A DNA stretch of 64,000 bases from Azolla caroliniana (taxonomy: Eukaryota; Plantae; Polypodiophyta), in contig JBHGNT010000004.1 in assembly GCA_043228905.1 (NCBI GenBank), forward strand, positions 14,942,001 through 15,006,000, given 5' to 3'. Under the pieces are notes generated by a model, which saw only the letters and a list, made by a program, of their open reading frames with translations, was not told the origin of the DNA and made no database searches. Each line of letters begins with the position of its first letter. Position 1 is the first letter of the stretch. Below are positions 42,704 to 64,000 of this stretch, piece after piece. The translations under genes were made by a program, and so were the position numbers.

Positions 42704-45700
42704 ATGGTCGCCGTGAAGAAGTTGTATTCCACAGCCCCCATAGAGCCCGACTGGAAACCTCCTCTGAATGTGCACCACGAACATCGCCATCACCACCACC
42801 ACCACCACCACCACCATCATCGTCATCATCATCATCATCGGAGAGAAGAAGGTAGTTGGCAGAACAGATTCGCAGGATTCATTTTCGTCTGCAACAAGGA
42901 TACGCTCCCCGATCTGGACAGAAGGATATTCGGTGAGTCTTTCTCATCTCTCTCTCTCTCTCTCCCTCTAATCTCTTCTTTTACCATGCTCCTATACACT
43001 AGGTCAATCAAGAACGGCCAGGTCAATCGTGAAACGTACAGGGAAACCAAGAAACTAAAGTGTAAAGCGAGAGACGGCTATCAATTAAGTGCATTGGAGG
43101 CAGATTCCCCCTGAACTGCCTCTCTCTTGGGGAATGAGATTGTTGAATCAAGACTCTCCTGTGGAGTAAACATGAATCAGTTCAATTTTGTGCGAATGGT
43201 TTGTCTTTGTGTGAAGGAGCTGGTTAAGCATGAATTGGCAATGGATTCAAGGGGAAGCATTCAGAATCTGTCTGATATGGATATCTCTGTATGAACAGCC
43301 GCTATTGCAACCAAGAATCGTCTAGGTCAAGCAGCAATCAGGTTTTCTAAATGCATGAATGGGTAGAATTAGCCCAGGACAGATGCTTCTATGAAGAGCC
43401 GTGTCACCAAAGAATCAGCTAGGTCAACCAGGATTCATGTTGTCTTAATATATGCATGAGTAGAATTAGCTATGGTAAGGTTCAACTATTGATTAAATGC
43501 AAAGAGGACTTGGTCTTCTTAGTATATGCATAAATAAGAGGATTGGCTTACTCAAGCTTTGCCAATGGATTAATTGTGAAGCACTCAGATTTTCTCTGAA
43601 CTGGTTCTGGTTTGTGAAGGAGATCTTGTGACACGAGAAGACTGTTTGATGTGAAGGAAATTTGTGACCATAGGTCAGGCAAGAGTTAGATACTGAATAG
43701 GCATAAAGTAGTTAGAATGTGTGCAATGTTATCTGCATGTTCGAAGGAGATTTGTGAGATTAGAAATATTGGAGATACATATATTCTGCTGTGATTATGT
43801 TCTCCAGGTTTACCAGCTCATCATGCTGAGTCTGTGCGTGCAATCAGACGAGGGATGCCACTCTTCTTGTTCAACTATTCAAGCCGATGTCTTTGTGGAG
43901 TCTTCGAAGTATTTACTGTGATTTGCAATATTCGTTAATGTGATTTCTATTTATTTGTGATGTTCCACTATGTGATTTGAAGTTACGAACGTCCTTTCGC
44001 ATGATCTCTTTTGATTTCTGATGTCTTTCTAAATGATTGCTTAAATTGGTGATGTTCATTCCTTTGCATGAAACTCTAGGCAACAAGTGATGGCGGATTA
44101 AACCTTGATCCCTACGCTTGGGAAAATACTGAGCAAACTAAATTCATGAAGGGACCAGAATCAAGGTACCCTGCTCAGGTGAGCCTTCTATGTGCATAGA
44201 ATTATACGATCCATGGTTCCTATCATGATTCTATTGATGAGACTTATCTGTCATCTCTAACTATTATAGGTAAGGGTTCGCTTGAGATTCCAGAGGCCAC
44301 CGTTGAATGAGGAAACTTTTCGGCCTGTTCTGGATCACTTTGAGGGGCATAAGTTCAGGTTGGAGCTGACAAGATACCAGGTATGTCCCAAATGCCATTG
44401 TGCATTGGACATTGGTACTTCGCTAGAAGTATGGCAGTTTCTTGAGTAGATGGTGTGGTTGTGTTGCTTGTAACATTTCATATATTTTTGGTGATGACAG
44501 GTACAACAACTTCTCAGATTGTTTGGAGCTCCAGAGGGAGGGTTCTTTGGGGTAAATGCCAGGGATTTCCATTTGCCGTTTAGCCCATGTGATTGTGATT
44601 CTCCACGATCTGCGTCCAGGTCAGATTTTGACTGTCAAAGTGAGTGTTCCAGCAAAGGAACCTATAATGGGGAGGAAGAGTGTATTGAAGAAGCTCCATC
44701 TGAAGACAGTGTGCTTAGTGATAGCATGAACTTAGATTTTCTGAGTGACAAATTGTGTCAAGTAGTGCTAAATGATGTGCGCATTGATCACCTTGACATT
44801 GTGCAAGAAGATATGCTTTATAATGCGACTCAAATGGCAGGCGTGCATCTCAATATCTTGGGGAGAAATCATACTAATCTTATGAATCACTATCACATTT
44901 GGAACATGAACCATTCAAAGGGTCTTGATTGTGCTCCAAATTATCACAATGAATGTCACATGCTACGTTTGAATGGGAATGATCCAGCTGTGAACAACGG
45001 GTTAGTCAATTTTGGTCAGAACTGTTCACACCATCTGCTGTTGGAAGGTGGAGAGGGCATGCTTACGATTCCTTCGATACCAGCACCGTGGCAGCCTCTG
45101 TTTCTTGAAACTCAGATTCCTGCACTAGCAGAACCAAGAGACTGTACTGGTTTTCCTGTGCACATGCATAAAGTAAGTGGGATGGCCGAAAGTATGCGAT
45201 CTAATTCACGTTTGTCCCTGAAGCAATGTCTTAATGAGGAGAAAATCAAAGATTCTCTGCCTAGTATTCCAGAAAGACAGGTGGATGGTACAGCTTCCTG
45301 TTTACCATCAAGTCTGTTTGTTCAACTTCCTGCGCAGTCTGGGTCAGGCAAATGTATGCCAGTATTGCCCCCAGATGGGAAATATGCCCAGCCTCCAGTA
45401 GATCACCTAGAGGAGTCAGAAGAAGGGGAGGGAGATTTGGCAGTGATGCCACATTTATTCATTCAACCTAGCTCTTTCCCAGTATATCTGATGCCATCAA
45501 TGCCAAGAATTGTGACCATTGCATCACCCATTGAATTATTGCACTTAGAGATATTGCAATTTGCAAGACTCACTCGACCGTCTGCTGAGACAATACTTCA
45601 CGTGGAGTCTGCAATAGATTCAGTCAGATCCTGTGTGAAGATGCTATGGCCTGAAGCTGATGTGGAGGTTAGCCTATTAATCCACACGCTTCTCATTTTT

Positions 45701-47273
45701 CTCGTGTTATTGTTGAAAGCGCTTCTTAATACGTAGATTTCCTTGTATTTCTTCCCAAGTCTTATCTCACTCTTGATAGACTTTCCTATGAATTTAATTG
45801 TGATACATTTGGTGCGTTCAGGTGTTTGGTTCCTTTGCTTCAGGCTTGTGCCTGCAGCACAGTGATGTTGATCTTGCAATTGTGGATGCACCTTTTGTAC
45901 CACCAATGGTGAATATGTCTATGTCACAAATATCTGCTTCTCTGTTGAAGGAGATTGGATCATTTTTGAAATTTCAGAAATGGTGCATGAACTACAATGT
46001 GATAGACACTGCGTCAGTGCCTGTACTGAAGTGTTGCTATCAACCTTTCGCGAGGCTACCAGATAGTTCTCTGTCTATCCCTTCAATTTCCATTGACATC
46101 ACAATCGGTGGTATAAGGGGCACTGCGTATGAATGGAATCAAGCCTATAGATTTGGTGGCTCGGGCAAGCTCTCAACGATAGGTAAGTTTCGGAATCAGC
46201 ATACGGGAGGAGGAGCTCGTGAGTATGTCCTCCAAAAAATCCAGGAGTTACCAGCTCTTGCACCACTTGTAAGTTATGTCTTCTCTTTAAAGTCTTGTTG
46301 GAACATTTTCACAAATTTTGAATGACTTATAAAAGAAAACAATATATCGTGTTGCTTTTTCTTGCAGGTGCTACTTTTGAAGTCATTTTTGCACCATAAG
46401 GGCTTAAGTAATGTTTATTTGGGTGGGCTTGGATCTTTCTCCCTGACTTTACTCATCACCTTTTACTTGGAGGTACATTCTTGATAGTTTATTACCTTTA
46501 TTTTGATTCTCTTCTCTTTGATTGTTGTCATAAGGGGAATTGAATTTGCAGAGAGCCATGGAGGGATTATTTGAGGATTTTCATGCAGAATCTGTCCTTC
46601 CAAAGCATTTTGATATCCAGAACTTGGAAAATGGTCCTGATTACAATTGTAGTCTTGGTGAATACTATGTTCAAAGAGCAGCAAAAGCTGTTGAGAAAGT
46701 GTTAGCACTCAGTGAGTCTTCTGGTATCCATTGTCTAGGAACGTTGCTTCTGGGTTTTCTGAACTTCTTTGGATCTGAAGACTTGACATGTCAGAAAATT
46801 GTATTGAAGGTAATGCATGTTTTGGAGGTAAAGATGTTAGTGTTAACGAATCGATTCTGAATGTTTGATCATATGTCTATTTGAAGGGACTTGATGGCAG
46901 TCCGGGTGGGAAACGGCAAAGGCGGAATAGACATATTGCATTATGGATAGATGATCCTCTGCATCCAGGAATTAATGTAGGCGCTGGTTCATTTGGCATG
47001 TGTCATGTTCAGGTAATTAATTTTTAAGCTGATTGCAGTCTAACTGATTAAGAAACACGGCTAAAATGAATCAAGAGATGTGCAGGTTCTCTTGGTCTTA
47101 AAAGTGTAAATCTCCTTTGGCAGGATTCGTTCCGAGAAATGTTGCAGGTTCTTATTTACCGGAAGTTGCCTGTAGTGCCGCTCTGTTGTAGCAAAATCGA
47201 TTGCCGAGACTTGGCTGCATTTGGGCAACTTCCCCAGTTAAGGCAATTAGTCTTTCAGGCTGAATCTTGGTGA
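42704..47273 (+). CDS. DCD-domain / TRF4-PAPD5 (TENT4)-like non-canonical poly(A) polymerase fusion protein, 10 exons, ~930 aa
   Basis: Exons 42704-42932, 43808-43908, 44080-44178, 44270-44380, 44501-45667, 45822-46268, 46368-46472, 46552-46809, 46887-47012, 47124-47273. All introns GT-AG; 2793 nt with no internal stop. DCD and nucleotidyltransferase/PAP-associated motifs are in frame. Confidence 0.88.
42869..44524 (+). other. DCD (development and cell death) domain, exons 1-5
   Basis: FAGFIFVCNKDT..RRIFGLP..SVRAIRRGMPLFLFNYS..GVFEATSDGGLNLDPYAWE..SRYPAQVRVR..PLNEETFRPVLDHFEGHKFRLEL..QVQQLLRLF, collinear with the plant DCD/NRP consensus. Confidence 0.9.
43282..43470. repeat. ~100-bp degenerate tandem duplication in intron 1
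   Basis: TATGAA.AGCCG..AAGAATC..CTAGGTCAA.CAG..GTAGAATTAGC twice. Confidence 0.6.
45530..47150 (+). other. Pol-beta-type nucleotidyltransferase and PAP-associated domain
   Basis: LHLEILQF, VFGSFASGLCLQHSDVDL, ASVPVLK, SIDITI, LKSFL..GGLGSFSL, LGTLLLGFLNFFG, WIDDPLHPGINVG. Confidence 0.9.
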
Positions 47274-48056
47274 TGCGAACTCTTTTGGAAGTGTGCATCA
47301 TTGATCGGAGAAAGCGTTGGAACTGGATTTGGAGTATCTGGTATGAATGGAGAAGCAGTGGAGATAGAAAAATAATGGTTCTTGGTTCTGCGGAAGATAG
47401 TTCAGTGCCATGATCCTCACTCCAGAACCTCGGTTTAAGCTTCGTTTCAATTTGAGGCTCTCCTGCAGATGCTCAGAAAGAACAGTTTTGTTTGATTAAT
47501 TTGAACCCTTAGGAACAGATAATCAGGAAGAGTTTGGTGTAGATGTGTACAGAGGCGTATAATGTGCAGCTTTGCCTATGCTTATTTTTTTCTGCAAGGC
47601 AAACTATTTTAACAGCAGTGACAAGAAACTTTCAGGGAGTTCTCATTGTAAATAAACTGAAAACTCAGTTTTGAGGCAGAAAGTATGCCTGCTCTCCCAG
47701 GCATGCAAGCCTTTATCAACAACCATTTGGGGCAATTGTATGTATTTTTAAACAAAAACTCAACTCGAGTTAAGATTGCCAGCAATTTGGCAATCGGGTG
47801 TATTTTTCAACAGCATCTCAACTGGAGAAGACTCAACATGGGTAATAATTTAGAGAACGTACCACTGAAATGAATGGGGTTGTGTCTGAATCATCTGTGG
47901 CGTTGGTGTAGCTGCAATGTGGATTTATTCACATGAAGTTCACTCAAAGTGTTGAGTTGTTATGTCTAATATGGTCTAGTGAGGACAAGCATTGACAGTC
48001 TGATAAGACTCAGACTTTTCTTCTAAATATCTCGAAGACAGAATAGCGGGAAGGCA

Positions 48057-50275: not shown

Positions 50276-53200
50276 TGTTGAGAAACGAATTGTTGATCCA
50301 CAATTCAAAACACACACACAACAGTGCATTCAAATTTTTACGTGGAAACCCTAAAACGGGAGAAAACCATGGGAGAACAAAGCTTCACTATATAGTGGAT
50401 ATACGAAGGACAAGATTACAACACTCTCGACTGTGAAGTGTATCAACCTCACAGGGCTCTTGGCGTCTGCTATTACGAACACAACTATGGCATCACTCTC
50501 TCACTCTTCTCTCTATCTCTCTGTCTCTCTCTCTAGAGGCTAACACCTTATTTTGTTCAACTCACACATCTCTCTAATTTTCCCTAAGTGTATTTATACT
50601 TATACACTATATGGGCTATTTACAAATGTAGCCACTGCTACTGTCATTCCTATTATAACGATAATAGTTATTCAGCCAATTGATCGACTCTAGTCGATTC
50701 TAGTGTCGACTGTCCAGTCAACCCGACTAATTGGACTTGTCGTCGACCCTTTGGTCGGCCCGACTAGTCAGTCTTGTCTTCGACATGGATCATTTGCTAT
50801 GTCGACTCTCTCTTAGTTGGTTCACCCAATTGACGCTCCATGACTTCGAGTGTCGGCACTCGGCCCGACAAGTTGGCTGCACCCATAGGAGGGACATATT
50901 CCTAACAAACTCCCCCTTCACTCCTATGAGTGGAGTTTGTTAGTCCTATCCTCTGTTGACAGACTGTAAGTCTGTCCATCGGTAGGTTTTTTGTCAACAT
51001 GTCAAATCCATTGTCATCAATGTGGATTTTCACAAGTGTAAACTCTCCGTCCTCCATTTTCTCCCGTAACCAAGGATATCTCCTCTGTATATGTTTGGTT
51101 CGGGAGTGGTGCGCAACGTTCTTGGCTAGATGTATGGGCTCAGATTATCATAGTGGAGCAAGAACTCTTCTTGCTTCATTCCGAGTTCACTGAGGAAACT
51201 ATTCATCCAAATCAGCTCTTTGCCGGCCTCTACTGCTGCCATGTATTCTGCCTCTATGGTCGACAAAGCTACCAACTTCTGTAGCCTCGACTGCCATGAC
51301 ACCGCTCCCCCTGCATAGGTCATCACACTCCCAAACGTGGATCAACTCGAGTCTGCATCCCTCGACATGTCCGAATCGGTAAACCCTTCGAGCATGGGTT
51401 TTCCGACACCATACCTAAGGCACACACCTGAGGTGCCTTTTAAATACCCGAGTATCCATTTTATAGCTGCCAATGTTCTATGCTTGGATTACTCATGTAT
51501 CGTCTTACTGCTCCCACAAAAAATGCTATGTGTGGTCTCGTACAGACCATAGCATACATTAAACTACCGACGACAGATGCATATGGTACTTTCCTCATCT
51601 CGGCCTTATCCTTCTCCCCTCTCGGGCATTGCTTGGCATTTAGCTTGCAATTGGTCCGTAACATAGAGCCAATTGGCTTTGATTCCGACGTGTTGAATCT
51701 TTCTAGGATCTTCGTCACGTATTTCTCTTGTGACAACCACAACACTTTCTTAGTTCTATCTCGAACTATGTGCATCCCTAATATCTGCTTTGCTAGTCCA
51801 AGATCTTTGATGGAAAACGACTTGCCTAATGCTTTGTTCAAGCTATCGATCTTCCTTGTATCTTGACCGACTATCAACATGTCATCTACATATAATAAGA
51901 GAATCAAGAAGTCTCCTTCATCATACCTTTTTAGGAACACACAATGATCAACCTGTGTTTCTGGAACCTATGTTCCACCATGAAGGACTCGAACTTCTTG
52001 TACCATTGGCGGGGGGCTTGTTTCAACCCACACAAGCTTTTCTTCAGTCCACACACTAGGTTCTCTTTCCCTTTCTCCACAAAGCCTTCGGGCTGCTCCA
52101 TGTAGATTTCTTCATCCAGTTCCCCATGCAAGAATGTTGTCTTGATATCCAACTGTTCGATCTCTAGATCCATGCTGACAGCTATGCTCAGAACAATTCT
52201 TATGAATGCCATCTTTACTATTGGAGTGAATATCTCATCAAAGTCGACACCCTTTTTCTGTTGGAAACCCTTCACCACCATGCATGCTTTATACCTAGGC
52301 GCGTTGTCGACTTCTCCAGTCTTCACCTTATAGACCCATTTGTTCCTCAGTGCTCTTTTACCTTTTGGTAATTCTACAAGGTCGTAGGTGTAGTTTTCAT
52401 GCAAGGAGTCCATCTCATCTTGCATCGCGCTCAGCCATTTCTCTCTACGCTCGTCAACAATGGCTTCATCATAGCACTCTAGTTCACCTTCATTAGTCAA
52501 GAGCATGTATTGACTGGCATATGTTATCGACTTCTTTCTCTGAGTAGGTATCTCCTTCCACTCGTCGCTGGCTCTCGTTCGGATGTCTCTGCCAACTCTT
52601 CTCTCGGCTTGGGTATGTATGTCGACCGACTTCTCAAGGTTGGACGACTCCAACTCGTATTCCTCGATCGATCTTAACAACTTTGCACTCTGACTCATAG
52701 TCGGTCGGTCTCTCTGAGTTGACCGACTCGGATTCAGCTGTGTTGACTGCCTGTCTCCGAATGATTGATTGTGTTGGTTCACTTGGCCTTAAGTCGACGG
52801 TACTCGAGGTTAACTAGGAAGTCGATTCCAACTTCTATTGCTTCCTGTCCTTTATCGTCTTGTCTTCCAAGAAGACTACATCTCGACTTCTCACTGCCTT
52901 CTTGTCGACTAAGTCCCATAGCCTATAACTGAACTCAACTTTTGAGTATCCCATGAATATGCATGGCTTCGACTTACTGTTGAGCTTCGACCTTTGATCC
53001 TTAGGCACATGCATATAAGCTAAACATCCAAACACCCTTAGGTGTTGGTACGACAAATCCTTACCTATCCACACCCTCTGTGGGACATCACCCTTCAATG
53101 GCACTGAGGGAGACCTCTGGATAAGATAAACAACTGTGTACATTGCCTCAACCCAGTATATTTTCGGCAGTTGAGCATGCGACAACATGCTCCTTACTCT

Positions 53201-56200
53201 CTCCATGATTGTTCGATTCATCCTCTCTGCAAGACTGTTCAACTTGGGGGTCTTCGGCACTGTGTATTCTATTCGAATACCTTGGGCGTTGCAGTATTCC
53301 TCGAACTGCCCTCTATATTCGCCACCATTGTCGGTTCAGATAACTTTCAACTTCTGATTTGGCTCCCATTCAGCTCTTGCCTAGAACTCCTTGAAGAACG
53401 GCAATACTTGATCTTTTGATTTAATACGAAAGCCCACAGCTTCCTACTGTAGTCGTCGATGAAAGTCACAAAGTACTATCCACCTCAATGCAACAGAGCA
53501 TCGACATAATACACATCTGTGTGTACTAGTTCCAATGACACTTCTCTTCTTCTTGGTGGTCTTGAGTGGAATGTTGCTCTGTTATGCTTTCCAACAAAGA
53601 AGTCGATGCACTTCTCCAGGTGCACTCCCTTTACCTCTAGTAGAAGTTTCTGTTCGGCTAATAGATGCAGACCCTTCTCACTCATGTGGCCTAGCCTCTT
53701 ATGCCATATCTGCCCTACCGAGTTGGCTGCCACATTCACTTTTGACTTGCACAATCGGGCTTGCATCATATACAATGCACCTTCTTTATGTGCTTAGGCC
53801 ACTATAATATTTCCTCGACAGAACTTCCACTTGCCATTTTGAAAACTACCATTGTAGCCTTCGTAGTCCAATCTTCCAGTCGATATCATATTCAATCTGA
53901 TATCGGGGACATGTCAAACATCCTTCAGAGTTAGTTGACACTCTGTCGACGTCGTCAAATAGATACTTCCGATTCCGGCTATCTTGCACTCCCCACTGTC
54001 ACCCGTCTTTACATAACCATGATCACCGGCTATGTAAGTCGAGAAATACTCTCTCGACGGAAATGTGGAAAGATGCACCGGAGTCAATCACCCAAGTGCA
54101 TTCTTCGCTTGCAAGATTTGCACTTGTCTATTCACAAATGAACACAAGTTCTTCATTGCTCGTAGCAATGGCTGAAGTGTTCTTTTCTTCAGGAATCTTC
54201 TTGGGTTCGACATTATTACCGACACTCTTTTCCTTCTTAAGATGTCGACAATCCTTGTGGAAATGCCTAGGCTTTCCACAATAAAAGCACACGAGCTTAC
54301 CTCTGGACTTCAATCTGGCGTGGATTTGTCCCTTCGTTTTGGACTTCTTTGTCGGTTCCTTCCTCTGCCGATATGTTGAGCCACGTTTGATTCCGACTGG
54401 GACAAGACTCCCTTGTCCTTCCTCCTTGTCTCCTCGTTCAAGATACTTGTTTTTACCGCTTGTAGAGACAAGTTCTCTTCTTGACACGATGTGTTGAGAG
54501 TCACCACCAGGTTCTCCCAGCTGTTCGCAAAGTTCACAACAGGATGACCTACATTGCATCCTCAAAGGGGAACCTGCATTGCAAGTTGATTCACATACCG
54601 CATGAATGTGCTGACGTGCTCGACTATGCTTTCCCCGTCCCTGTATTTCAATCTCACGCTCTTTCTCATCAAGGATGTTTTGTTGAGGGCATTCTTCCTC
54701 TCATATAAGCCTGACAGCTTCTGCCACATCTCGTAGGCATTTGTTGTTACGAAGGTGCTACAACTCTTCTTAGTGCACAATGGATCGTGATGTGCTGGAT
54801 CGTTAGTGCATTCAAGAGAGAAAGAAAAGGGGTGGACGAAGACTCACCTCAGTAGCAGCCCAAGGCTTCTATTTCATTACACAGAGAAAAAAGCCTCTCT
54901 GGTTTGTTTTCTATTTTCTTCTTACTTCACTCTCCTACTCACTCTTACTTTTTTTACCTAAGTATATAAGTGACTTACATATTTAGCTAATTAGTTGTGA
55001 GTAGCTAAATAGTTGTTTTACCTATATGTCTAATAGTAGCTAATTTCTTGTTAGTTACTATAGAAGATCTATGTTACCAATAAGCATCACATGCTTTTGT
55101 TAAGCTTGATTCTTAACACTCCCCTCAAGCTCAACTTATCCATTCTTGAGATCATCTTCAATCTTCTTTCCTTCATGCTTTCCAACTATCATACCAATGC
55201 TTATAACTCCCATCAATAGCAACTTGTTTCTTGCTACTCCATGAAATAGTTGCAATTCCCAATGTAAACATATATCCACTCGTGGATCTTCTATTAGTTT
55301 GGCTTCTAGCCCAATCAACATTTGTATATCCTTCCAACTTTATGTCCAGATCAGCCTTGTAAAATAGTCCATGGTTTTGAGTAACTTTTACATACCTCAA
55401 AATTTTTCTAATGCAATCCAAATGTGGCTTTGTTTGATGTTGCATAAATTGGCTGACTAATCCAACTACATAACACTTAAATAAGGTCTTGTTATAGTCA
55501 AGTATATGAGGTTGCCCACCATAGACCTGCACATGTTCACATCTACTATTTTTGCTCCCAAATCAACTCTCAATTTGTAGTTCTTATCCAGTGGTACATC
55601 AATAGGTTTGCATCCAAGCATTCCATACTTTTTCAACACATTTGTAACATACTGTGTTTGCAGCATATATATTCCACTTTCAGATATGATTATCTCAATA
55701 CCAAGAAAGTATTTCAGGTCTCCCAAATCCTTCATATGAAACTGTATTTCTAGATTTTTCTTCAGATTGCTTATTTCATCCATAGAATCACCTCCAATGA
55801 TTAAATCATCTACATAAATCAAAATCATAACAATGCAATCATTCACAATCTTTACATACAATGATGGATTAACCTTTGACATTTTGAAAACAATTTTTTT
55901 TAGAGATTCTGAAAGTTCTTTGTGCCATGCTCTCGGTGCTTGTTTTAGTTCATAGAGAGCCTTTTTCAACTTACAAACATATTCTGAATGCTTCTTATCT
56001 TCAAATCCTAGTGGTTGACACATGTACACTTCCTCTTCTAAGTTCCCATGTAAAAAAACATTTTTTACATCAATATGGTGCAGAAACCATCTTTTGGTTG
56101 CACTTACAACAAATAGTGTCCTCAAGGTTGCCATTTTTGAAACCGGTGCAAATGTCTCATCATAATCACTTCCTTGCATTTGAGCATATCCCTTTGCAAC

Positions 56201-59200
56201 AAGTCTTGCTTTATGTCTACTTACATTCCCATTTGAATCACGCTTTGTTTTGTAGACTCATTTGCAACCTACCACATTTTTTGCTTTTGGCAATTTTATC
56301 AAATCCCATGTTTTGTTTTCAGCCAATGCATCCATTTCTTCTTGCATTGCATTCACCCATTTCTTCTTAACTTTTGCTTCATCAAAACTATTTGGATCAA
56401 GGATCTATACCACTTTAGACATATATGCATAATGCATAGCCATGTATGTATCATAACCATATCTTTCAACCATTTTTCTCTCTCTATCTGATCTTCTCAG
56501 TTTCTGATTTGCATCTTTCACTGCTCTTTGAACACTAGAGATTTTCAGCACTTGTGTACCCAACTCTTCATCCAATGATACATCTGAATCTACATCTTCC
56601 CATGTTTCTAGATCCATCATCAAGCATTTCATATTCTGGCATCTTCTATTTCCCTTTTTATCATCATCTTTTTTATGTCTTAGATTTTTTCCACTCCAAG
56701 CATTTGAATCAGATTTACTACCTGAGTTTTCAGATGGTCTAGTACATTCTATTGATGTTGAACTTTGCTATCCAACCTTATTTCCATTTCCATGACAATC
56801 TCTTCCATTTTCCGATTTATCCATGTCTTCATTTTCATTGTCTTCGTCAGTTTCTACATTTTGTTTTGGGTTGTACCAGCCGCCCAACTCATCAAATATC
56901 ACATCATGGCTTACTACAATCTTTTTTGTCAAAGGGTTCCCTTTTTGCTCCGCTGAATATCCCACATTTTTCAGCTTTTGGATCAAGCTTACTTCTTACT
57001 TCAGCAGGTACATGAACATAAACAATGCATCCAAACACTTTTAAGTGTCCTAAACTAGGTTTCATGCCATAGAAACATTCTTCAGGAGTTACTACATGTA
57101 CTCCAGATGTTATGCATCTATTTAGAATATAGTTTGTTGTGTTTACAACCTCAGCTAGGTAATACAATGACATATTTTTTTCTGTAATCAAAGCTCTTGC
57201 TATATTTACCAAAGTTCTGTTTTTCCTCTCAGACACTCCATTTTGCTGTGGAGTATATCTACATGCAAACTGTCTCCTTATTCCTTGATTGCATGGAAAA
57301 ACAGAAAATTCATTTGAGAAGTATTCTCCTTCTCCATCAGACTTTAAGCATTTTATTCTAGTCCCGACTTGCTTTTCTACCATGCATTTGAACTTACAAA
57401 AGCAATCAAATACTTCACTCTTCTCTTTCATGAAGTAAACCCATGTTTTCCTTGAGCAATCATCAATGAATGTTACATAAAACCTGCAACCACCAATTGA
57501 GGCCTTTTTTGTTGGTCCCCATACATATCTGTATGCACTAGATCCAACAAGTTTTTGCTTATATGTCCTTCATGAGAGAAAGGTAGCCTGTTTTGCTTTC
57601 CATATTGACATGCTTCACATATTTTGCTCATCTCACATTCTTTCAACTTTGGCAGTCCAGCCACTGCATTTTTTCTCAACATATTTTGCAAAGTTTGCAT
57701 ACTTATGTGTCCCATTCGTTTATGCCATGTTTCTACATTTGAGATTACATTCATTCCTCCTTCAAACATGGATGTAATCTTTTTCGGCATATCCATATCT
57801 AAAACAAACACACTTCCTTGACGTTTTCCTTTTGCAATCAGCTTTCCATGTTTCTCTATAAAGCACCACTTGCATTCCTTGCTCTACTATCTGTTCAACA
57901 GAAATCAGATTTTTTGCAAGGTATGGAACAGGCATAACATTCTGCATATACTTTTTTTTCCTCTTTCTTCCCACAATGGAATATCTCCAACATGCTCGAT
58001 TGTATGAGTAGTGTTATCACCTGTCTGTACATAACCAGGAATCTCTGGTTCTCTTAGACTTTCAAACCAGTTTGCATGTCCGGTCATATGATTAGATGCC
58101 CCAAAATCTACATACCACATATAATCTTCATTACATCTTTGTGAACATTTAGCCACTGTTGTTGTTTCACGTTGCATCACAAAAACACCTTCTTTATCAC
58201 CGTTTTCACTAGTTGAAGCATAGTTATTTTGCTGTCTCTTCCCTCTTTTTTCATCATTTTGCTTTTTATAACCTTCAACTTGTGTATGACCTGGTTTTCT
58301 ATAATACTAACAACCATCATCACTCAAATATGTTTGCTTACCTCTACCTCGGTTGCTCCCCCTGCCTCTAATGTCGTTTCTTCCACTTATAGCTTGTTGT
58401 CCTCTTCGTTGATAACTATTATTGGTTCTAGTTGAACCCAATCTTCCATGGCCTCTTCCTCGGCCTCTTCCAACACTATTGTAGAGAGCTTGCCCCTCAG
58501 TTTCAAAGTTTCCTTTGTTTATATCTTCAATCTGGTTTCTTTCTTCCACTACTAGCATTGAAACCATATTTGCAAAATTTGGGATACTATCCCTTGTGAG
58601 AATGGATGTTTTGAAGCTTTTGTATTGAGGTCCTAAACCCCTTAAGCATACTTCTACCTTATCATCATCGTCTACCTTCACATTAATAGAAGCAAGTGAT
58701 TCACATATGCTCTTTATTTTCAGAGCATACTCTTTGACTAACCTCTTACCTTTTTCCAAGGTATGTTCAGTCTTCAACTGAAGTTTTCTTGCCTTTGTAT
58801 TCACTTCAAATAGTTTCACCAAACTGTCCCAAGCTTCTTTTGGAAGCAAAGCATATTGTATATGTCCAAGCATCGAATATGAGATGCCAAGTGACAGCCA
58901 ATGCAATAATTTTCTTGCCCCTTGATTCCAATCCTTAAATGCTTTGATCTATGCAGTAGTTGCATTTTCTTTAGGGATCTCTAGAGCCTCTTCTAGGTCT
59001 CCGTCAATGTAATTCCAGTATCCTTTTCCCATTAGGAAATTTGTCATTCTGAATTTCCACGTAGGGAAATTTTTCTTATCCAATTTTTCTGTGACTATTT
59101 GGCTTCCATTTTCAGCAACCATCTCTCTTTCAATTTAGGGCTTTAGCTACGATTAACTTTAACAAGCAACTCTTTGATTCAGATCAGCAACCAAAGAAAT

Positions 59201-60645
59201 CTTCTCGGATCTATATAGTCTATTCTTCTTTACGAGCAACTCTGCTCTGATACCATGTTATGAAGGCTCCACGGCTCTTCTTAATGCACATTGGATCGTG
59301 ATGTGATGGATCATTAGTGTGTTCAAGAGAGAAAGAAAAGGGGGGGAAGAAGACTCACCTCAGTAGCAACCCAAAGCTTCTATTTCATTACACAGAGAAA
59401 AAAACCTCTCTCGTCTGTTTTCTATTTTCTTCTTACTTCACTCTCCTACTCACTCTTATTTTTTTAACCTAAGTATATAAGTGACTTCAATATTTAGCTA
59501 ATTAGTTGTGAGTAGCTAAATAGCTCTAAGTAGATAATTAGCTGTGAGTAGCTAAATAGCTCTAAGTAGCTAAATAACTGTAAGTAGCTGTGAGTAGCTA
59601 AGTAGTTGTGAACAACTAAATAGTTGTTTTACCTATATGTCTAATAGTAGCTAATTTCCTAATAGCTACTATAGAAGATCTGAGTTACCAATAAGCATCA
59701 CATGCTTTTGTTGAGCTTGGTTCTTAACATTTGTGTCGTTCGCCACATGTTGAAGTACACTTACATTGACACATTGTCAGATGGTGGCCACTGCCTTTCT
59801 ATTAAGAAGTTTCCATTCCAACTCTACTCCCATGGGTATTTCTTCTTTGTTGATTGGCTCATATAGGTCTTTGACCATGGGAAGGTCCTCCATCTTTATC
59901 TTCCAGTTTGCATAGTTATGAGAGTTCAGAACTATCACACTTGGGAAGCTGCTCACACCTCCTTCCATGCTTGCACCTCAAGCTCTGATACTAGAATGTT
60001 GAGAGACGAATCATTGATCCACAGGAGGAAAAAATTGAAGATATACAACGCAAAACACACACACAACAGTGCACTCAGATTTTTACGTGGAAACCCTAAA
60101 CGGGAGAAAACCATGGGAGAACAAAGCTTCACTATACAGTGGATATACAAAGGACAAGATTACAACACTCTCGACTGTGGGGTGTATCAGCTTCATAGGG
60201 CTCTTGGCGTCTGCTATTACGAACACAACTATGGCACTACTCTCTCACTGTCTCTCTCTCTCTCTCTCTCCGGAGGCTAACACCTTATTATGTTCAACTC
60301 ACACATCTCTCTAATTTGCCCTAGTAAGTGTATTTATACTTATACAATGTATGGGCTATTAACAAATGTATCCACTGCTATTGTCATTCCTATTATAACA
60401 ATAATAGTTATTTAGCCGACTGATCGACTAGTCGATTCTAGTTTCGACTGTCCAGTCGACCCGACTAATCGGACTTGTCGTCAACCCTTCGGTTGGCCCG
60501 ATTAGTCGGTCTTGTCTTTGACTTGGATCATCTGCTATGTCGACTCTCTCTCAGTCGACTCACCCAATTGACTCTCCATGACTTCAACTGTCAGCACTCA
60601 GCCTGACAAGTCGGCTGCACCCATAGGAGGGACATATTTCTAATA
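50276..60645 (-). mobile_element. Ty1/copia element K, degenerate, TSD GTTAA/GTTTA; contains L
   Basis: LTRs 50276-50907 and 59997-60645; decayed PBS 59982-59993; PPT 50908-50921; gag-pol remnants at 50920-54744 and 59730-59968 (YVDDM, STIEAEY, CFYCGKPRHFHKDC). Confidence 0.9.
54745..59729 (-). mobile_element. AT-rich Ty1/copia element L nested in K gag, TSD TTTGT
   Basis: LTRs 54745-55118 and 59256-59729; TTTGT on both sides restores K's HVANDTNAYEM; PBS 59244-59255; YVDDL present; most of RNase H deleted near 55215. Confidence 0.92.
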
Positions 60646-60921
60646 GTTTAGAGGTTTTGTGGAGACAAGAACATGACATAAAACAAGTCGGAGATGTGAA
60701 GCTTGATGAAAACCACAAAGTGAAGAGTTTATCATGGCACAAAGACGAAGCTCATAGTAACAGTTGATTGGAGTTTATGATAAACCGGACATACTATATG
60801 CTTCGTCCTTGCATGATAAACTAGATTTTGCACGAGGTGTATTGCGCTCTGTGAGTCGCAATGCAAGGTCGGAGAGAATTGGACAATTCAACTCTTGGTC
60901 GACAAGTCAATTGCTAGATGT

Positions 60922-62496
60922 TGTTGCGGATTTCCGCGAGTGTGTGTTGAAACGGGGCGGGACGACTATGGTCTCGAACCAAGGACCCAACAAAGGAAGA
61001 AGGATCAACCGGATCAGTGTCCGGATAACTTCGTCGGAGTGCAGTTCCAAAGCCGGTAAGGAAAATGGATTATCTGGATAACTTCGTTGCAGCGCGGTCC
61101 GGACACGTATCCGATCGGGATCTGTCTCTGAATGCCGACTGATGAGCACATGGGCTCAGACGCACATACTGCTCCGGAATAGCCGCCCGATCACGGACAA
61201 CAAGCCCACGGCTACCGCACTTGGGTATGCACATGTTGTCGTGAATGATTCCGGTCAGAGGAAGAAAACAGAGCCGGATGCACGTGAACGGGGGTGTGTG
61301 TGGATGCACACGAAATTTGTCTTAATGTATAAAGTGTGTAAATAACATAGGACTAATAAATACTAGGTTGAGTGATTGAGACGGGTACTTTAATGTCCCA
61401 CACGAATAGAGAGGAATGAGAAGATATGATGTGAGGGAATCGAGGAGAGAATCGAGGGTCAGAAAGCGGTTGTCTTAACAGCCTGGTGTAACGGTCTCTC
61501 CCTCTTTGAACTATAAAAGGAGGGACAGGAGACTGAGGAGGGATCCACGATTTGGGAGAATGAATTGCTGCCAGATCGAGCTTTGTAGATTTCTGTTTTC
61601 CTAATCTCTATTTCGCTCGATGAGCTATGAGCCCTCCGTTTCGCGTTGGTAGCCCATGTGCTCTCGATTGGAGGCTCACTAGTGTCTATGTGTGTGAGTT
61701 TCGGGAGCTCGTAGCTCTATTGCCAGCCGTGTCCGGTTGTAATCTTCTATTTTCTCTGATTAATCATTAGTTATATTGAGTCTTTGTTCGTGTTTAGGTA
61801 ATTCTACGCCCTTTCTGTTTGACGTGTGTTTGTCGTGTCTTGAGCTTGTGATCTCACATTTGTTCTATTCCCGTTTTAGTGTGCGGGATCAATGTGTGAG
61901 CCCATGAGCTCATTGTTCGTTGTCTGGCACAGCTCCGGAACTGATAACCCGTGCCGAGCCCGTGTGCTCACTGTCAAGCATCCGAAGACTTGTCTAGATC
62001 GGATCAGGTACTTGTTCAAACTGCTCTCTGGGGAAGTTACGTGGAGGTTGATTCAGATAATCCCCTTTCCTTATCGGCTCTGGAACAACGCTCCCGCGAG
62101 AGATATCCAAACACCTATCCGGTTAACACTTCTTCCCTTACCGACTCCTTGGTCCGAGACCCCGGTGGGCCCACCCGTTCTGACACATCCACACGAAAAT
62201 CCGTGACATCCTTGGTGAACCCGACGTGAAAGAGGTGGAAGAGGAGTCCGAAGATGAGAGGAAGCGAACTTGTAGTGGCGATGGTGGTGGCCGTCCACCA
62301 GATAGTAAATGCGTGGGAGAGCGTAGGTGGCCTCGATAGGGCAATAGAGAGGATGGTCGGCACGATAGGTTGATTTAACGGAAAGGACTTGAAAAGCTAT
62401 CTAGAGTCCTACTGGGCCGAGATAATAATGAGGGATATCCTGGAGGATAGACGGTTGTTCGGATTCCCATGAGTTGTGACACCGAGCATCCACGTT
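60922..62496 (+). mobile_element. Truncated gypsy element M (family of C): 5' LTR, tRNA-Trp PBS and gag start
   Basis: LTR 60922-62208 (TG...CA, CTATAAAAGG at 61511); PBS TGGTGAACCCGACGTGAA at 62213-62230; gag from 62254 (MRGSELVVAM..YLESYWAEIIMRDI) is homologous to C gag. Confidence 0.85.
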
Positions 62497-62594
62497 ATCA
62501 TGGTGTACTTTGTACACTACGTAAAATATGTGTGGAGTACCCGATTGACTAAGTATAAAGAAATAGGAGCAATACTACAATAATTATGTTACAT

Positions 62595-62660
62595 GCATAG
62601 GGCAGGATTTGAACCCTATACCTCCATGTTAACGATTTTAAGCCTTACCACTGTACTAGC
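62595..62660 (-). other. tRNA-derived (SINE-head-like) relic
   Basis: Minus strand has A-box-like TAGTACAGTGG and B-box GGTTCAAATCC at tRNA-like spacing; no clean cloverleaf. Confidence 0.35.
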
Positions 62661-62769
62661 ATATTATGAGTTTTAAAGTTATACTAAACTTTATCCCACG
62701 TAAATATTCTAGATAAGCATGATAGTCGATAAGTTTCTATGGGACAAAGGAGGCTCCATTGGAATTTTA

Positions 62770-64000
62770 CCTTCATTTTCCTTTTCTGATCATGCACCAC
62801 TTTGTTTAATTATAGTTTTATAGGAACACTATAAAACTTCTAGATTTCAAATTCCAAATCATGTGTTTCTTAGACAAGATTGTGTTCATGTTGTGCATAA
62901 TATTTGGAATAAGTATGTCTATTCTTATGATTATGCATTATCTAGTGTTCAAAACGCTATTACTAAAATACAACAATTTTTTCACTATAAGGCCAAACAA
63001 ATATTTCGAGCGTCTTTCACTAAAATAGGAAGACTTCAGAGGGGATTGAGGTCCTTGCAACATTTGCAAGAGAGAAGGCCATATTCGAGTTATATAAGTT
63101 CTAGAGTGATACAAGTAGGGAATCAGATATTAGTATTACAAAAGGTTTCTGCTAAATTTACTTACCACAATATAGCATCTGAATGGGCAGAGTCGGGAGA
63201 TAAAGTAAATAAAATGTTCTTTAAAATGCATAATCACCATAAGGCGGCTGCTAGGATTCCCCATTTAAAATGTCCTGATGGCTCTTATACCAATTATCCT
63301 AGTCAGATGCGGCAAATAGCCTCTGAATATTATGAAGATTTGTTGAAGGCTCGATCCTTTTCTACTGATGATTTATCTAAACGGGATATTATTTGGTCGA
63401 GGATTCAACATAGAGTGTCTGTTAAACTTTCCGAATGTCTTTTGCAACCACTAAGTCCTCAAGAGATTTTTAAAGCAGCAAAGGCCTTAGTAAAGGATGT
63501 TTGTCCTGGATTGGATGGGCTAGGGGTTCAGTGGTATATACAATATTGGGATTTGATAGGTGAGGGACTGACTAAAGCTTATCAATAGGTTTTAGATCCT
63601 AGAAATATGCCGCAAGAATGGAATGACGGTTTAATTTACATGATTCCCAAAGCAAGTGGTTAGTTAGAGGAGCTTCGCCATTGGAGGCCAATTACTTTGT
63701 TGAACGTTATTTATAAGATATTAGCCAAAACGTTAGCTAGACGTTTACAACCTTATCTTTCTGAACTGATTCATGATTCTTAGACAGGTTTTATACAAGA
63801 GCGAAGTATTTTTGATAATATTATTCTTTTTTGGGAAATGGTAGCTTTTGCTGAAGTGTAGAATCAAGAGTTGGAAAGTGGTATTTTTGGATTTTGAAAA
63901 AGCTTATGACAAAGTGGATTGGGATTTCATGGAGGGTACTTTGCTCAAGATGGGTTTTCCAAACAGATGGATATGGGGTGTTTCAGCATTATATTGTAAT
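62770..64000 (+). mobile_element. L1/Tx1-type LINE ORF2 fragment (endonuclease end, linker, RT N-terminus), degenerate
   Basis: SDHAPL, DKVNKMFF, CPGLDG, WRPITLLNVIYKILAK, GFIQERSIFDN, DFEKAYDKVDW; several stops. Confidence 0.88.

Follow-up and report, generated by a model that had tools for sequence, protein, structure and literature searches.

The closest described relatives of the gene analyzed here are yeast Trf4/Trf5 and human TENT4A/B (PAPD7/PAPD5), poly(A) polymerases of TRAMP, for its enzyme part and the NRP/B2 and DCD-Kelch proteins for its DCD domain. Binding to Mtr4 and Air is known for Trf4 in TRAMP, and a preliminary description of the locus stated that TRF4/PAPD5 enzymes rely on adaptors (Air1/2, ZCCHC7); since human TENT4B is active without a cofactor according to section 7 of PMC6232586, this reliance holds fully for yeast Trf4 only. 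The same source describes TUT1 as a tailing enzyme with targeting domains of its own (ZnF/RRM/KA1). For plants, the available sections of PMC8894942 report no clear ZCCHC7/Air1 homolog and no TRAMP, and a 2026 review of plant NTPs deals exclusively with families of angiosperms, with the words "DCD," "moss," "bryophyte," and "gymnosperm" absent from its text. DCD proteins were divided into subgroups I to IV (Tenhaken 2005), none of which carries an enzyme domain in the portion of PMC1182354 available. Elsewhere in eukaryotes, DCDs occur in fusions with CPSF30-like, YTH, KH, and mRNA-methyltransferase domains (PMC7641849).

The gene lies in a 64,000-nucleotide (nt) stretch of Azolla caroliniana DNA (the window) and encodes a single 930-amino-acid (aa) protein, in which an N-terminal DCD is followed, after a long linker, by a TRF4-like nucleotidyltransferase whose catalytic triad is intact. 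Its features are as follows.

42704..42932, + strand: exon 1, with the ATG, a nonconserved His-rich tract (aa 24-46), and the first DCD strand and helix (FAGFIFVC...RIFG)
42869..44524, + strand: DCD domain, aa 56-188, exons 1 to 5 (Pfam PF10539, conservation, fold of a homolog)
42929, 44119, and 44167, + strand: conserved DCD aromatics F76, W124, and Y140, respectively (conservation)
42933..43807, + strand: intron 1, 875 nt, phase 1
43808..43908, + strand: exon 2, DCD core, FGLP..LFLFNY (Pfam, splicing)
44080..44178, + strand: exon 3, DCD, AW..RYPAQ (Pfam, splicing)
44270..44380, + strand: exon 4, DCD (Pfam, splicing)
44501..45667, + strand: exon 5, aa 181-569, with the last DCD helix, the 335-aa linker, and the first enzyme helices (from aa 524)
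45822..46268, + strand: exon 6, catalytic nucleotidyltransferase core with GS, D584, D586, D661, and the HTG motif
45828-45833, 45864, 45870, and 46095, + strand: catalytic residues GS (aa 572-573), D584, D586, and D661 (SIDITI), respectively (motif and conservation)
46368..46472, + strand: exon 7, helical central domain (KSFLHHKGL..YLGGLGSFSL), aligned to Trf4 3NYB; spliced
46552..46809, + strand: exon 8, a variable insert followed by the start of the PAP-associated region
46887..47012, + strand: exon 9, with a basic stretch (aa 848-854), the nucleotide-recognition loop IDDPLHPGINVGAGSF from 46941, and Ile868
47124..47273, + strand: exon 10 as far as the stop codon; spliced
47274..47695, + strand: 3' untranslated region, minimum extent (contigs X1 record 5 and X3 record 15)

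Joined via nine GT..AG introns, the 10 exons amount to 2,793 nt, coding for 930 aa plus a stop with no internal stop codon, as the preliminary description had read them. The end of the DCD and the start of the enzyme do share exon 5, as it had also claimed, the catalytic motif beginning in exon 6. Its nine junctions were all recovered in contigs of close relatives: those of introns 2 to 9 as GT..AG joints in contigs of four public runs (run X1 has all eight), and that of intron 1 in contigs of three of the four runs, where the end of exon 1 directly precedes exon 2, with loose ends. These runs come from related species or strains, mostly 90 to 99% alike, and their RNA origin is our guess; the spliced contigs can hardly stem from genomic DNA. 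Contig X8 (3,750 nt) spans exons 2 to 5 and carries a further 3,238 nt on the 3' side, and the two contigs that define the 3' untranslated region extend from exon 10 to 47676-47695. DCD and enzyme also occur in single transcriptome-derived open reading frames (ORFs) of Psilotum and Pteridium. In one contig of a relative, intron 1 was retained or separately transcribed.

The enzyme part shares with Trf4/Trf5 and TENT4A/B the catalytic triad, the GGLG motif of the central domain, and the layout of the DP..N..GSF loop, and differs from them by its own N-terminal DCD and the 335-aa linker. The GS-x10-DxD signature with a third Asp identifies it, at the sequence level, as a noncanonical terminal nucleotidyltransferase (Pol beta-like, Cid1/Trf4 type). 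Among the streptophyte family members G, S, and the first two Asp residues are each conserved in 43/43 and the third Asp in 42/43. Pfam matched exon 6 with MTPAP-like_central (39.3 bits, over the cut-off) and NTP_transf_2 (20.3 bits, just under it). The PAP-associated region noted in the preliminary description is present with its loop (aa 858-875), although its Pfam match is weak (PAP_assoc, E of 0.31 in exon 8; 20 to 22 bits in three homologs, just below the cut-off of 22.6). The closest solved relative by sequence is yeast Trf4 (3NYB; E of 9e-27), to which the enzyme aligned over three stretches, with both the central helical domain and the PAP-associated loop recovered. Trf4 was likewise closest by structure in a fold search with a rough full-length model, built from nine sequences and of poor quality (mean pLDDT, 35), and the Atlas structure neighbors include TENT4A.

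Nucleotide choice was approached through the Cid1 H336 position, whose role in uridylation is described in PMC13702519. Uridylyltransferases have His at this position, which is occupied here by Ile868; over 43 family rows the position holds V (20), A (14), I (3), or S (2), and His is not one of the five most frequent states. As controls, the URT1-like gene of this genome has His and its TRL-like gene has Asn. A uridylyltransferase of the Cid1 or URT1 type was therefore rejected, as this His is absent. In the same loop the TRL-like and URT1-like genes have Lys/Arg at a position held here by Ala; the Asn and Lys of the TRL-like enzyme give way to a hydrophobic residue and Ala. Because the loop fits neither the His type of uridylation nor the Asn type of TRL-like enzymes, and carries this Ala, the choice of nucleotide is uncertain.

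The DCD was identified by Pfam on single exons, Dev_Cell_Death matching exons 2 to 4 (36.4 bits for exon 2 alone), and in a close homolog (P0004) at 118 bits over 1-126/126; the motifs FGLP, LFL, PAQV, and PLxE are all four present, placing it in PF10539. Its fold was modeled on a homolog (P0059) that is 59% identical to the window's own sequence in the DCD, with a pLDDT above 90 for 118 residues. The top structural match of the model was PH1033 (Z of 14.0, rmsd of 2.5, 125 aligned), followed by VcaM4I (Z of 11.7), Mmi1 YTH (11.2), YTHDC2 (11.1), and THYN1 (9.3), and Foldseek agreed on EVE/YTH folds. The DCD is thus predicted to adopt a PUA-like EVE/YTH fold of the nucleic-acid-binding type, in line with the preliminary description, and is mildly basic (19 K+R, 15 D+E). 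A shared fold by itself shows no function. Profile searches of solved structures gave no solved DCD among the matches; that with alignment A2 gave only Kelch repeats, because Kelch-bearing rows had polluted the profile.

Two paralog pairs gave dN/dS ratios of 0.06 and 0.13 for the DCD (the former against paralog L006, with dS near saturation), 0.18 and 0.14 for the enzyme, and 0.25 and 0.44 for the linker. By these ratios, both domains are under purifying selection, which is no weaker on the DCD than on the enzyme. Identity to moss and liverwort proteins is 59 to 62% in the DCD and 46 to 51% in the catalytic part. The linker, contained in exon 5, is poorly conserved and predicted to be disordered, with two short conserved motifs, one Ser/Asp rich (near aa 218-236) and one DPAVN (near aa 341); for its W-x-x-V motif, nothing relevant was found in the literature.

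The layout of a DCD with a TRF4-like nucleotidyltransferase is conserved in ferns, lycophytes, mosses, liverworts, conifers, and zygnematophyte algae, and this genome has five intact copies, the ten-exon layout being the same in the five paralogs. Both halves thus recur in the same proteins, 42 of the 47 matches to the enzyme part carrying a DCD. DCD erosion was also seen: P0050 has only a remnant, and several fern entries start inside the domain. None of the 47 matches was from a flowering plant, and the named matches included none from hornworts, cycads, Ginkgo, gnetophytes, or Amborella. We found no description of this architecture in the literature, as the preliminary description had supposed, but it is a conserved family from algae to conifers rather than a one-off. 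Chromist proteins such as CPSF30-YTH-DCD-KH and DCD-CAPAM (Bell et al. 2020) similarly join a DCD to RNA 3'-end or RNA-modifying modules, with RNA binding predicted. The fusion here differs in having a nucleotidyltransferase: "nucleotidyl" does not occur in the available text of PMC7641849, and no such fusion was found in three supplementary files. TUT1 has its own targeting domains as well; it is of a different subfamily, uridylates, and its domains are unrelated, none of them PUA-like. A search of the Atlas with the whole fusion protein returned leads below 0.9 and no DCD-enzyme cluster, a blank that is uninformative there.

The fusion enzymes form a clade of their own (100/100), apart from TRL-like rows, which form another clade (100/91-96), and from MEE44-like rows, with which they share a larger group (100/96); both labels are ones that we take to apply from motifs, in a tree composed of sequences other than those of Arabidopsis. 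The enzyme is thus TRF4/TENT4 related, as first proposed, but it is nearer to the MEE44-like than to the TRL-like proteins, and orthology to TRL/TRF4/TRAMP was rejected. With the group of Arabidopsis MEE44/NTP9, an unstudied TRF4 homolog, it shares an H-x-G motif after the third Asp; orthology was rejected here as it was for TRL/NTP10, the fusion enzymes standing apart and this genome having a separate MEE44-like gene (L025) besides a TRL-like one (L028). Labyrinthulomycetes have divergent DCD-enzyme versions with an extra RRM (Pfam, 25.6 bits in P0080, over the cut-off; 19.3 in P0173, under it). The evidence for a single rather than a repeated origin of the fusion across eukaryotes was mixed: streptophyte and labyrinthulomycete enzymes came together at 99.4/100 in one enzyme tree, a mixture-model tree gave this grouping weaker values of 96/79 and placed one row without a DCD within it, and an AU test did not reject a single clade (p of 0.44); the DCD tree did not join their DCDs. 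In that tree the fusion DCDs share a clade with the NRP-type DCDs (98/92), which are their nearest relatives.

On balance, we lean toward a self-targeting tailing enzyme: its DCD would select RNAs by binding them, and its catalytic part would give them short untemplated tails, probably rich in A or mixed. Tethered in this way, the DCD would do for the enzyme what Air1/2 or ZCCHC7 do for Trf4/TENT4. Enzymatic activity is very likely; ATP would probably be preferred over UTP, the tail seems somewhat likely to commit the RNA to exosome decay and not to protect it, and we expect, with some hesitation, that the DCD binds RNA. This reading draws on the purifying selection on both domains and their joint occurrence, the catalytic residues, the modeled DCD fold, the RRM of labyrinthulomycete members, the fusions of other eukaryotic DCDs to RNA-related domains, the missing uridylation His, and the lack of a clear plant ZCCHC7/Air1. 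Against it weigh the protein partners of the NRP DCD, the only mild basicity of the DCD, its erosion in some members (with W124 lost in conifers and paralog L009), the atypical recognition loop, and the poor full-length model. That the DCD instead serves as a protein-binding adaptor as in NRP, localizing or regulating the enzyme through partners such as signaling proteins while RNA choice comes from partners or linker motifs, is possible but rather unlikely. NRP-type DCDs group with the fusion DCDs and have measured protein partners, which makes this a real rival: the Arabidopsis NRP DCD binds CRY2 PHR at 4.34 uM (surface plasmon resonance [SPR]) and the fungal effector PevD1 at 0.19 uM (PMC13570309), and NRP acts on FyPP3 (PMC10388829). 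Several short conserved linker motifs are, moreover, typical of protein-binding sites. The predicted fold of nucleic-acid readers and the recurrence of eukaryotic DCDs beside RNA-processing domains speak against it, and the NRP partners are compatible with RNA binding, a subject on which the available text of PMC13570309, with no occurrence of "RNA," is silent.

If the DCD recognized a modified base (m6A or m5C), an RNA mark would be coupled directly to tailing. Such reading is predicted for eukaryotic DCDs in PMC7641849, m6A and m5C readers are among the structural neighbors of the model, and F76, W124, and Y/F140 are mostly kept in fusion DCDs (36/38, 32/38, and 37/38, respectively). W124 aligns with a YTH cage tryptophan, but in a weak profile alignment (probability, 8.6%) that matches one of three cage positions, the first being unaligned and the third YTH tryptophan lacking a conserved aromatic counterpart. 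W124 is missing in conifers and paralog L009, and the aromatics may be mere core residues. Mmi1 YTH, which binds unmethylated RNA, ranks level with m6A readers among the matches. We regard this reading as unlikely, and the methylated-RNA recognition envisaged in the preliminary description is so far unsupported. A DCD that is a mere passenger, or a frame that joins two genes as an annotation artifact, is extremely improbable and already largely refuted. The Klebsormidium (P0218) and Mesotaenium (P0054) entries without a DCD would fit it, as would the 5/47 matches with none over the threshold; the open exon 5, the nine spliced junctions, the paralog layout, and the transcriptome ORFs led us to reject the merged-gene version, and the strong selection on the DCD opposes the passenger version. 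The self-targeting tailing enzyme might, more doubtfully, be an ancient one-protein RNA 3'-end reader-writer whose DCD pocket reads a modified base or short motif while the fused enzyme tails. It would predate land plants, perhaps by far given the labyrinthulomycete DCD-enzyme-RRM proteins, would have expanded in ferns and been lost in flowering plants, and NRP would be the freed DCD, all that flowering plants retained, hence an unrecognized RNA-binding protein.

The RNA-tailing toolkit of plants has been cataloged almost only in flowering plants, and the DCD fusions add a further subfamily, which flowering plants appear to lack and which the genetically tractable Marchantia, Physcomitrium, and Ceratopteris possess. 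What the DCD does at the molecular level has been an open question since 2005, RNA binding having been only predicted, in 2020. Because a natural DCD-enzyme fusion has a read-out, the RNA tails, it makes DCD function directly testable, and through the kinship with the NRP DCD the result would also bear on a regulator of stress and cell death that is studied in crops.

The gene that fuses a DCD domain to a TRF4-like nucleotidyltransferase has ten exons, joined through nine GT..AG introns into a stop-free frame of 930 aa. Pfam places the DCD in exons 2 to 4 and the nucleotidyltransferase in exon 6, which bears out the intact gene fusion claimed in the preliminary description. The gene model of that description has nine splice junctions: in contigs of public sequencing runs, presumed to be RNA from close relatives, introns 2 to 9 are skipped exactly, and for intron 1 the end of exon 1 stands directly before exon 2 in three of four runs. 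Intron 1 is covered by a contig of one run, X8, at a depth of 15.7 versus 92.4 for the spliced form, and the fern database proteins P0016, P0017, and P0019 start within the DCD; intron retention or an alternative start may give a DCD-truncated isoform. The gene is isolated amid retrotransposon remnants with long ORFs, and its neighbors are therefore uninformative. Window features are as follows:

42704-47273, plus strand: the gene, ten exons
42979-43836: intron 1 cover by a 905-nt contig of run X8 (~90% identity), which extends into exon 2
1-38600 and 51400-63600: nested remnants of copia- and gypsy-like retrotransposons at high density, with short N gaps, flanking the gene

A catalytic-exon search retrieved nine longer proteins among 303 candidates, all nine with DCD and nucleotidyltransferase domains; matches came from Adiantum, Ceratopteris, Pteridium, and Psilotum and from contigs of 3.6 to 4.3 kb. 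Profile searching revealed further members in Marchantia, Riccia, Sphagnum, and Ceratodon. When 1.84 billion representatives were scanned with HMMER, the best 150 of 5,946 matches added Taxus, Cryptomeria, Closterium, Spirogloea, and Diphasiastrum, as well as divergent proteins (10 examined) from Mucochytrium, an MMETSP transcript, a Durusdinium-labeled record, and marine metagenomes. Finally, a conifer enzyme-domain query gave 47 matches at E <= 1e-20 among 3,644 candidates, and Selaginella, Physcomitrium, Calypogeia, Klebsormidium, and a JGI "Mesen1" entry, which we take to be Mesotaenium, were gained. The DCD is present in 42 of the 47, and its absence from the remaining five seems to reflect incomplete or split gene models or, in one case, erosion; that the fusion is an artefact is very improbable. 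Since none of the 36 organism-named matches was from a flowering plant and the 11 unnamed ones best matched fern, moss, or algal proteins, the family was likely lost in flowering plants, as judged by this word-based search of proteins of 463 to 1,476 aa.

Two short linker motifs, acidic-W-E-x-V-K (immediately following the DCD) and S-Y-x-A-A-L-K, are common to the non-fern members compared (P0021, P0024, P0027, P0045, P0046, P0089, P0210, and P0212) and absent from ferns; a Ser/Asp-rich motif and DPAVN are more widely shared. In P0089 (27 members, marine metagenomes), also a DCD-enzyme fusion, the first catalytic Asp is replaced by Asn and the third by His, suggesting a probably inactive version from a marine eukaryote. 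P0080, from a 10.9-kb contig labeled Durusdinium trenchii, groups with Mucochytrium (branch supports 100/100) and may stem from labyrinthulomycete contamination of the Durusdinium assembly.

The TRF4-like identity proposed for the enzyme part held: its nearest solved relative is yeast Trf4, and the catalytic triad (D584, D586, and D661) is nearly invariant across the family. Enzyme trees were built from 67 sequences over 290 alignment columns, after one partial and two near-duplicate rows of an initial 70 were dropped; outgroups were limited to the sequences available, none of them from Arabidopsis. The streptophyte proteins, 40 in number, fall into a single clade (100/100 in one tree, 92/77.5 in another), which is nested with MEE44-like proteins in a larger group and is separate from the TRL-like proteins. 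Tree position also identifies the host as a fern. Passages of PMC13702519 report that a recognition-loop His favors UTP in Cid1. This position is His in the Azolla URT1-like protein, Asn in the TRL-like one, and Val, Ala, or Ile in the fusion family. With the UTP-favoring His missing, the family more likely adenylates or adds mixed tails, but its loop represents a distinct type. Two probably green-algal records, P0090 and P0123, carry TRF4-like enzymes with another N-terminal fusion, presumably a HAD/FCP1-type phosphatase region.

The Azolla genome contains five family copies, all built from the same ten exons with a DCD upstream of the enzyme and the catalytic triad intact, alongside separate genes that we labeled TRL-, MEE44-, URT1-, and HESO1-like by their motifs. 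In one paralog (L009; G000:C1:29430500-29440499, minus strand) the enzyme is intact and the DCD fast-evolving, apparently without the conserved aromatic W124 and PAQ motifs, although the exon 3 call there is low-scoring; conifer DCDs likewise lack W124. The only TRL-like gene found (L010/L028; G000:C9:20236700-20238410, minus strand) is almost free of introns in its coding region; Arg/Asp changes lie beside its third catalytic Asp, and its catalytic motif contains an insertion. It could be a divergent retrocopy, the ordinary TRL having been overlooked by the exon-wise search.

The structure model is of the DCD of P0059, a family-like protein 59% identical to the window DCD, on whose record the enzyme part is absent. 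The model is confident across the domain and scores far better against EVE and YTH structures than against unrelated folds, confirming the profile-based assignment in PMC7641849 (section 12) and agreeing with the EVE/YTH grouping cited in the preliminary description. Selection constrains the DCD as strongly as the enzyme, although dS is saturated in part. NRP-type DCDs join the fusion DCDs (98/92), apart from other N-terminal and multi-DCD types, in a tree of 81 DCDs built from few columns and with rough support values. The grouping suggests that the fusion DCD module may be the ancestor or the sister of NRP.

DCD-tethered tailing is the most likely explanation for the fusion protein. The analysis establishes gene structure, splicing, conservation, and catalytic residues, whereas the DCD fold is a prediction. 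As to activity, ligand, nucleotide, and outcome, we infer that the DCD would bind chosen RNAs and tether the enzyme to them, and a flexible linker would let the catalytic module reach the RNA 3' end, where it would add a short A-rich tail, probably marking the RNA for decay. Tethering is favored because labyrinthulomycete members carry an additional RRM, other eukaryotic DCDs keep RNA-processing company (PMC7641849, sections 13 and 21), and plants have no clear Air/ZCCHC7 in the sections consulted of PMC8894942. The kinship with NRP cuts both ways, since excerpts of PMC13570309 and PMC10388829 describe measured protein partners of the NRP DCD; a DCD acting as a protein adaptor is accordingly possible, if somewhat unlikely. 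Within RNA tethering, a strict methyl reader is unlikely: three aromatics are conserved in fusion DCDs, of which W124 alone can be aligned, weakly, to a YTH cage residue.

As the preliminary description had supposed, no account of the DCD-nucleotidyltransferase fusion was found in the open full-text literature, where, among the papers listed, "DCD domain" and "nucleotidyltransferase" co-occur in a single one, on bacterial BREX. The DCD survey (PMC7641849) lacks "nucleotidyl" in its text and holds nothing relevant in three supplementary files searched, a 2026 plant NTP review lacks the term "DCD," and the 2005 DCD paper (PMC1182354), in the part available, gives four layouts, none enzymatic. 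Database names are only "hypothetical" or "DCD domain-containing," and the architecture is computable by anyone from database records. The family is a real, apparently undescribed subfamily of predicted RNA-tailing enzymes with the DCD fusion as its defining trait; it extends a known kind of enzyme and does not amount to a system of a new kind.
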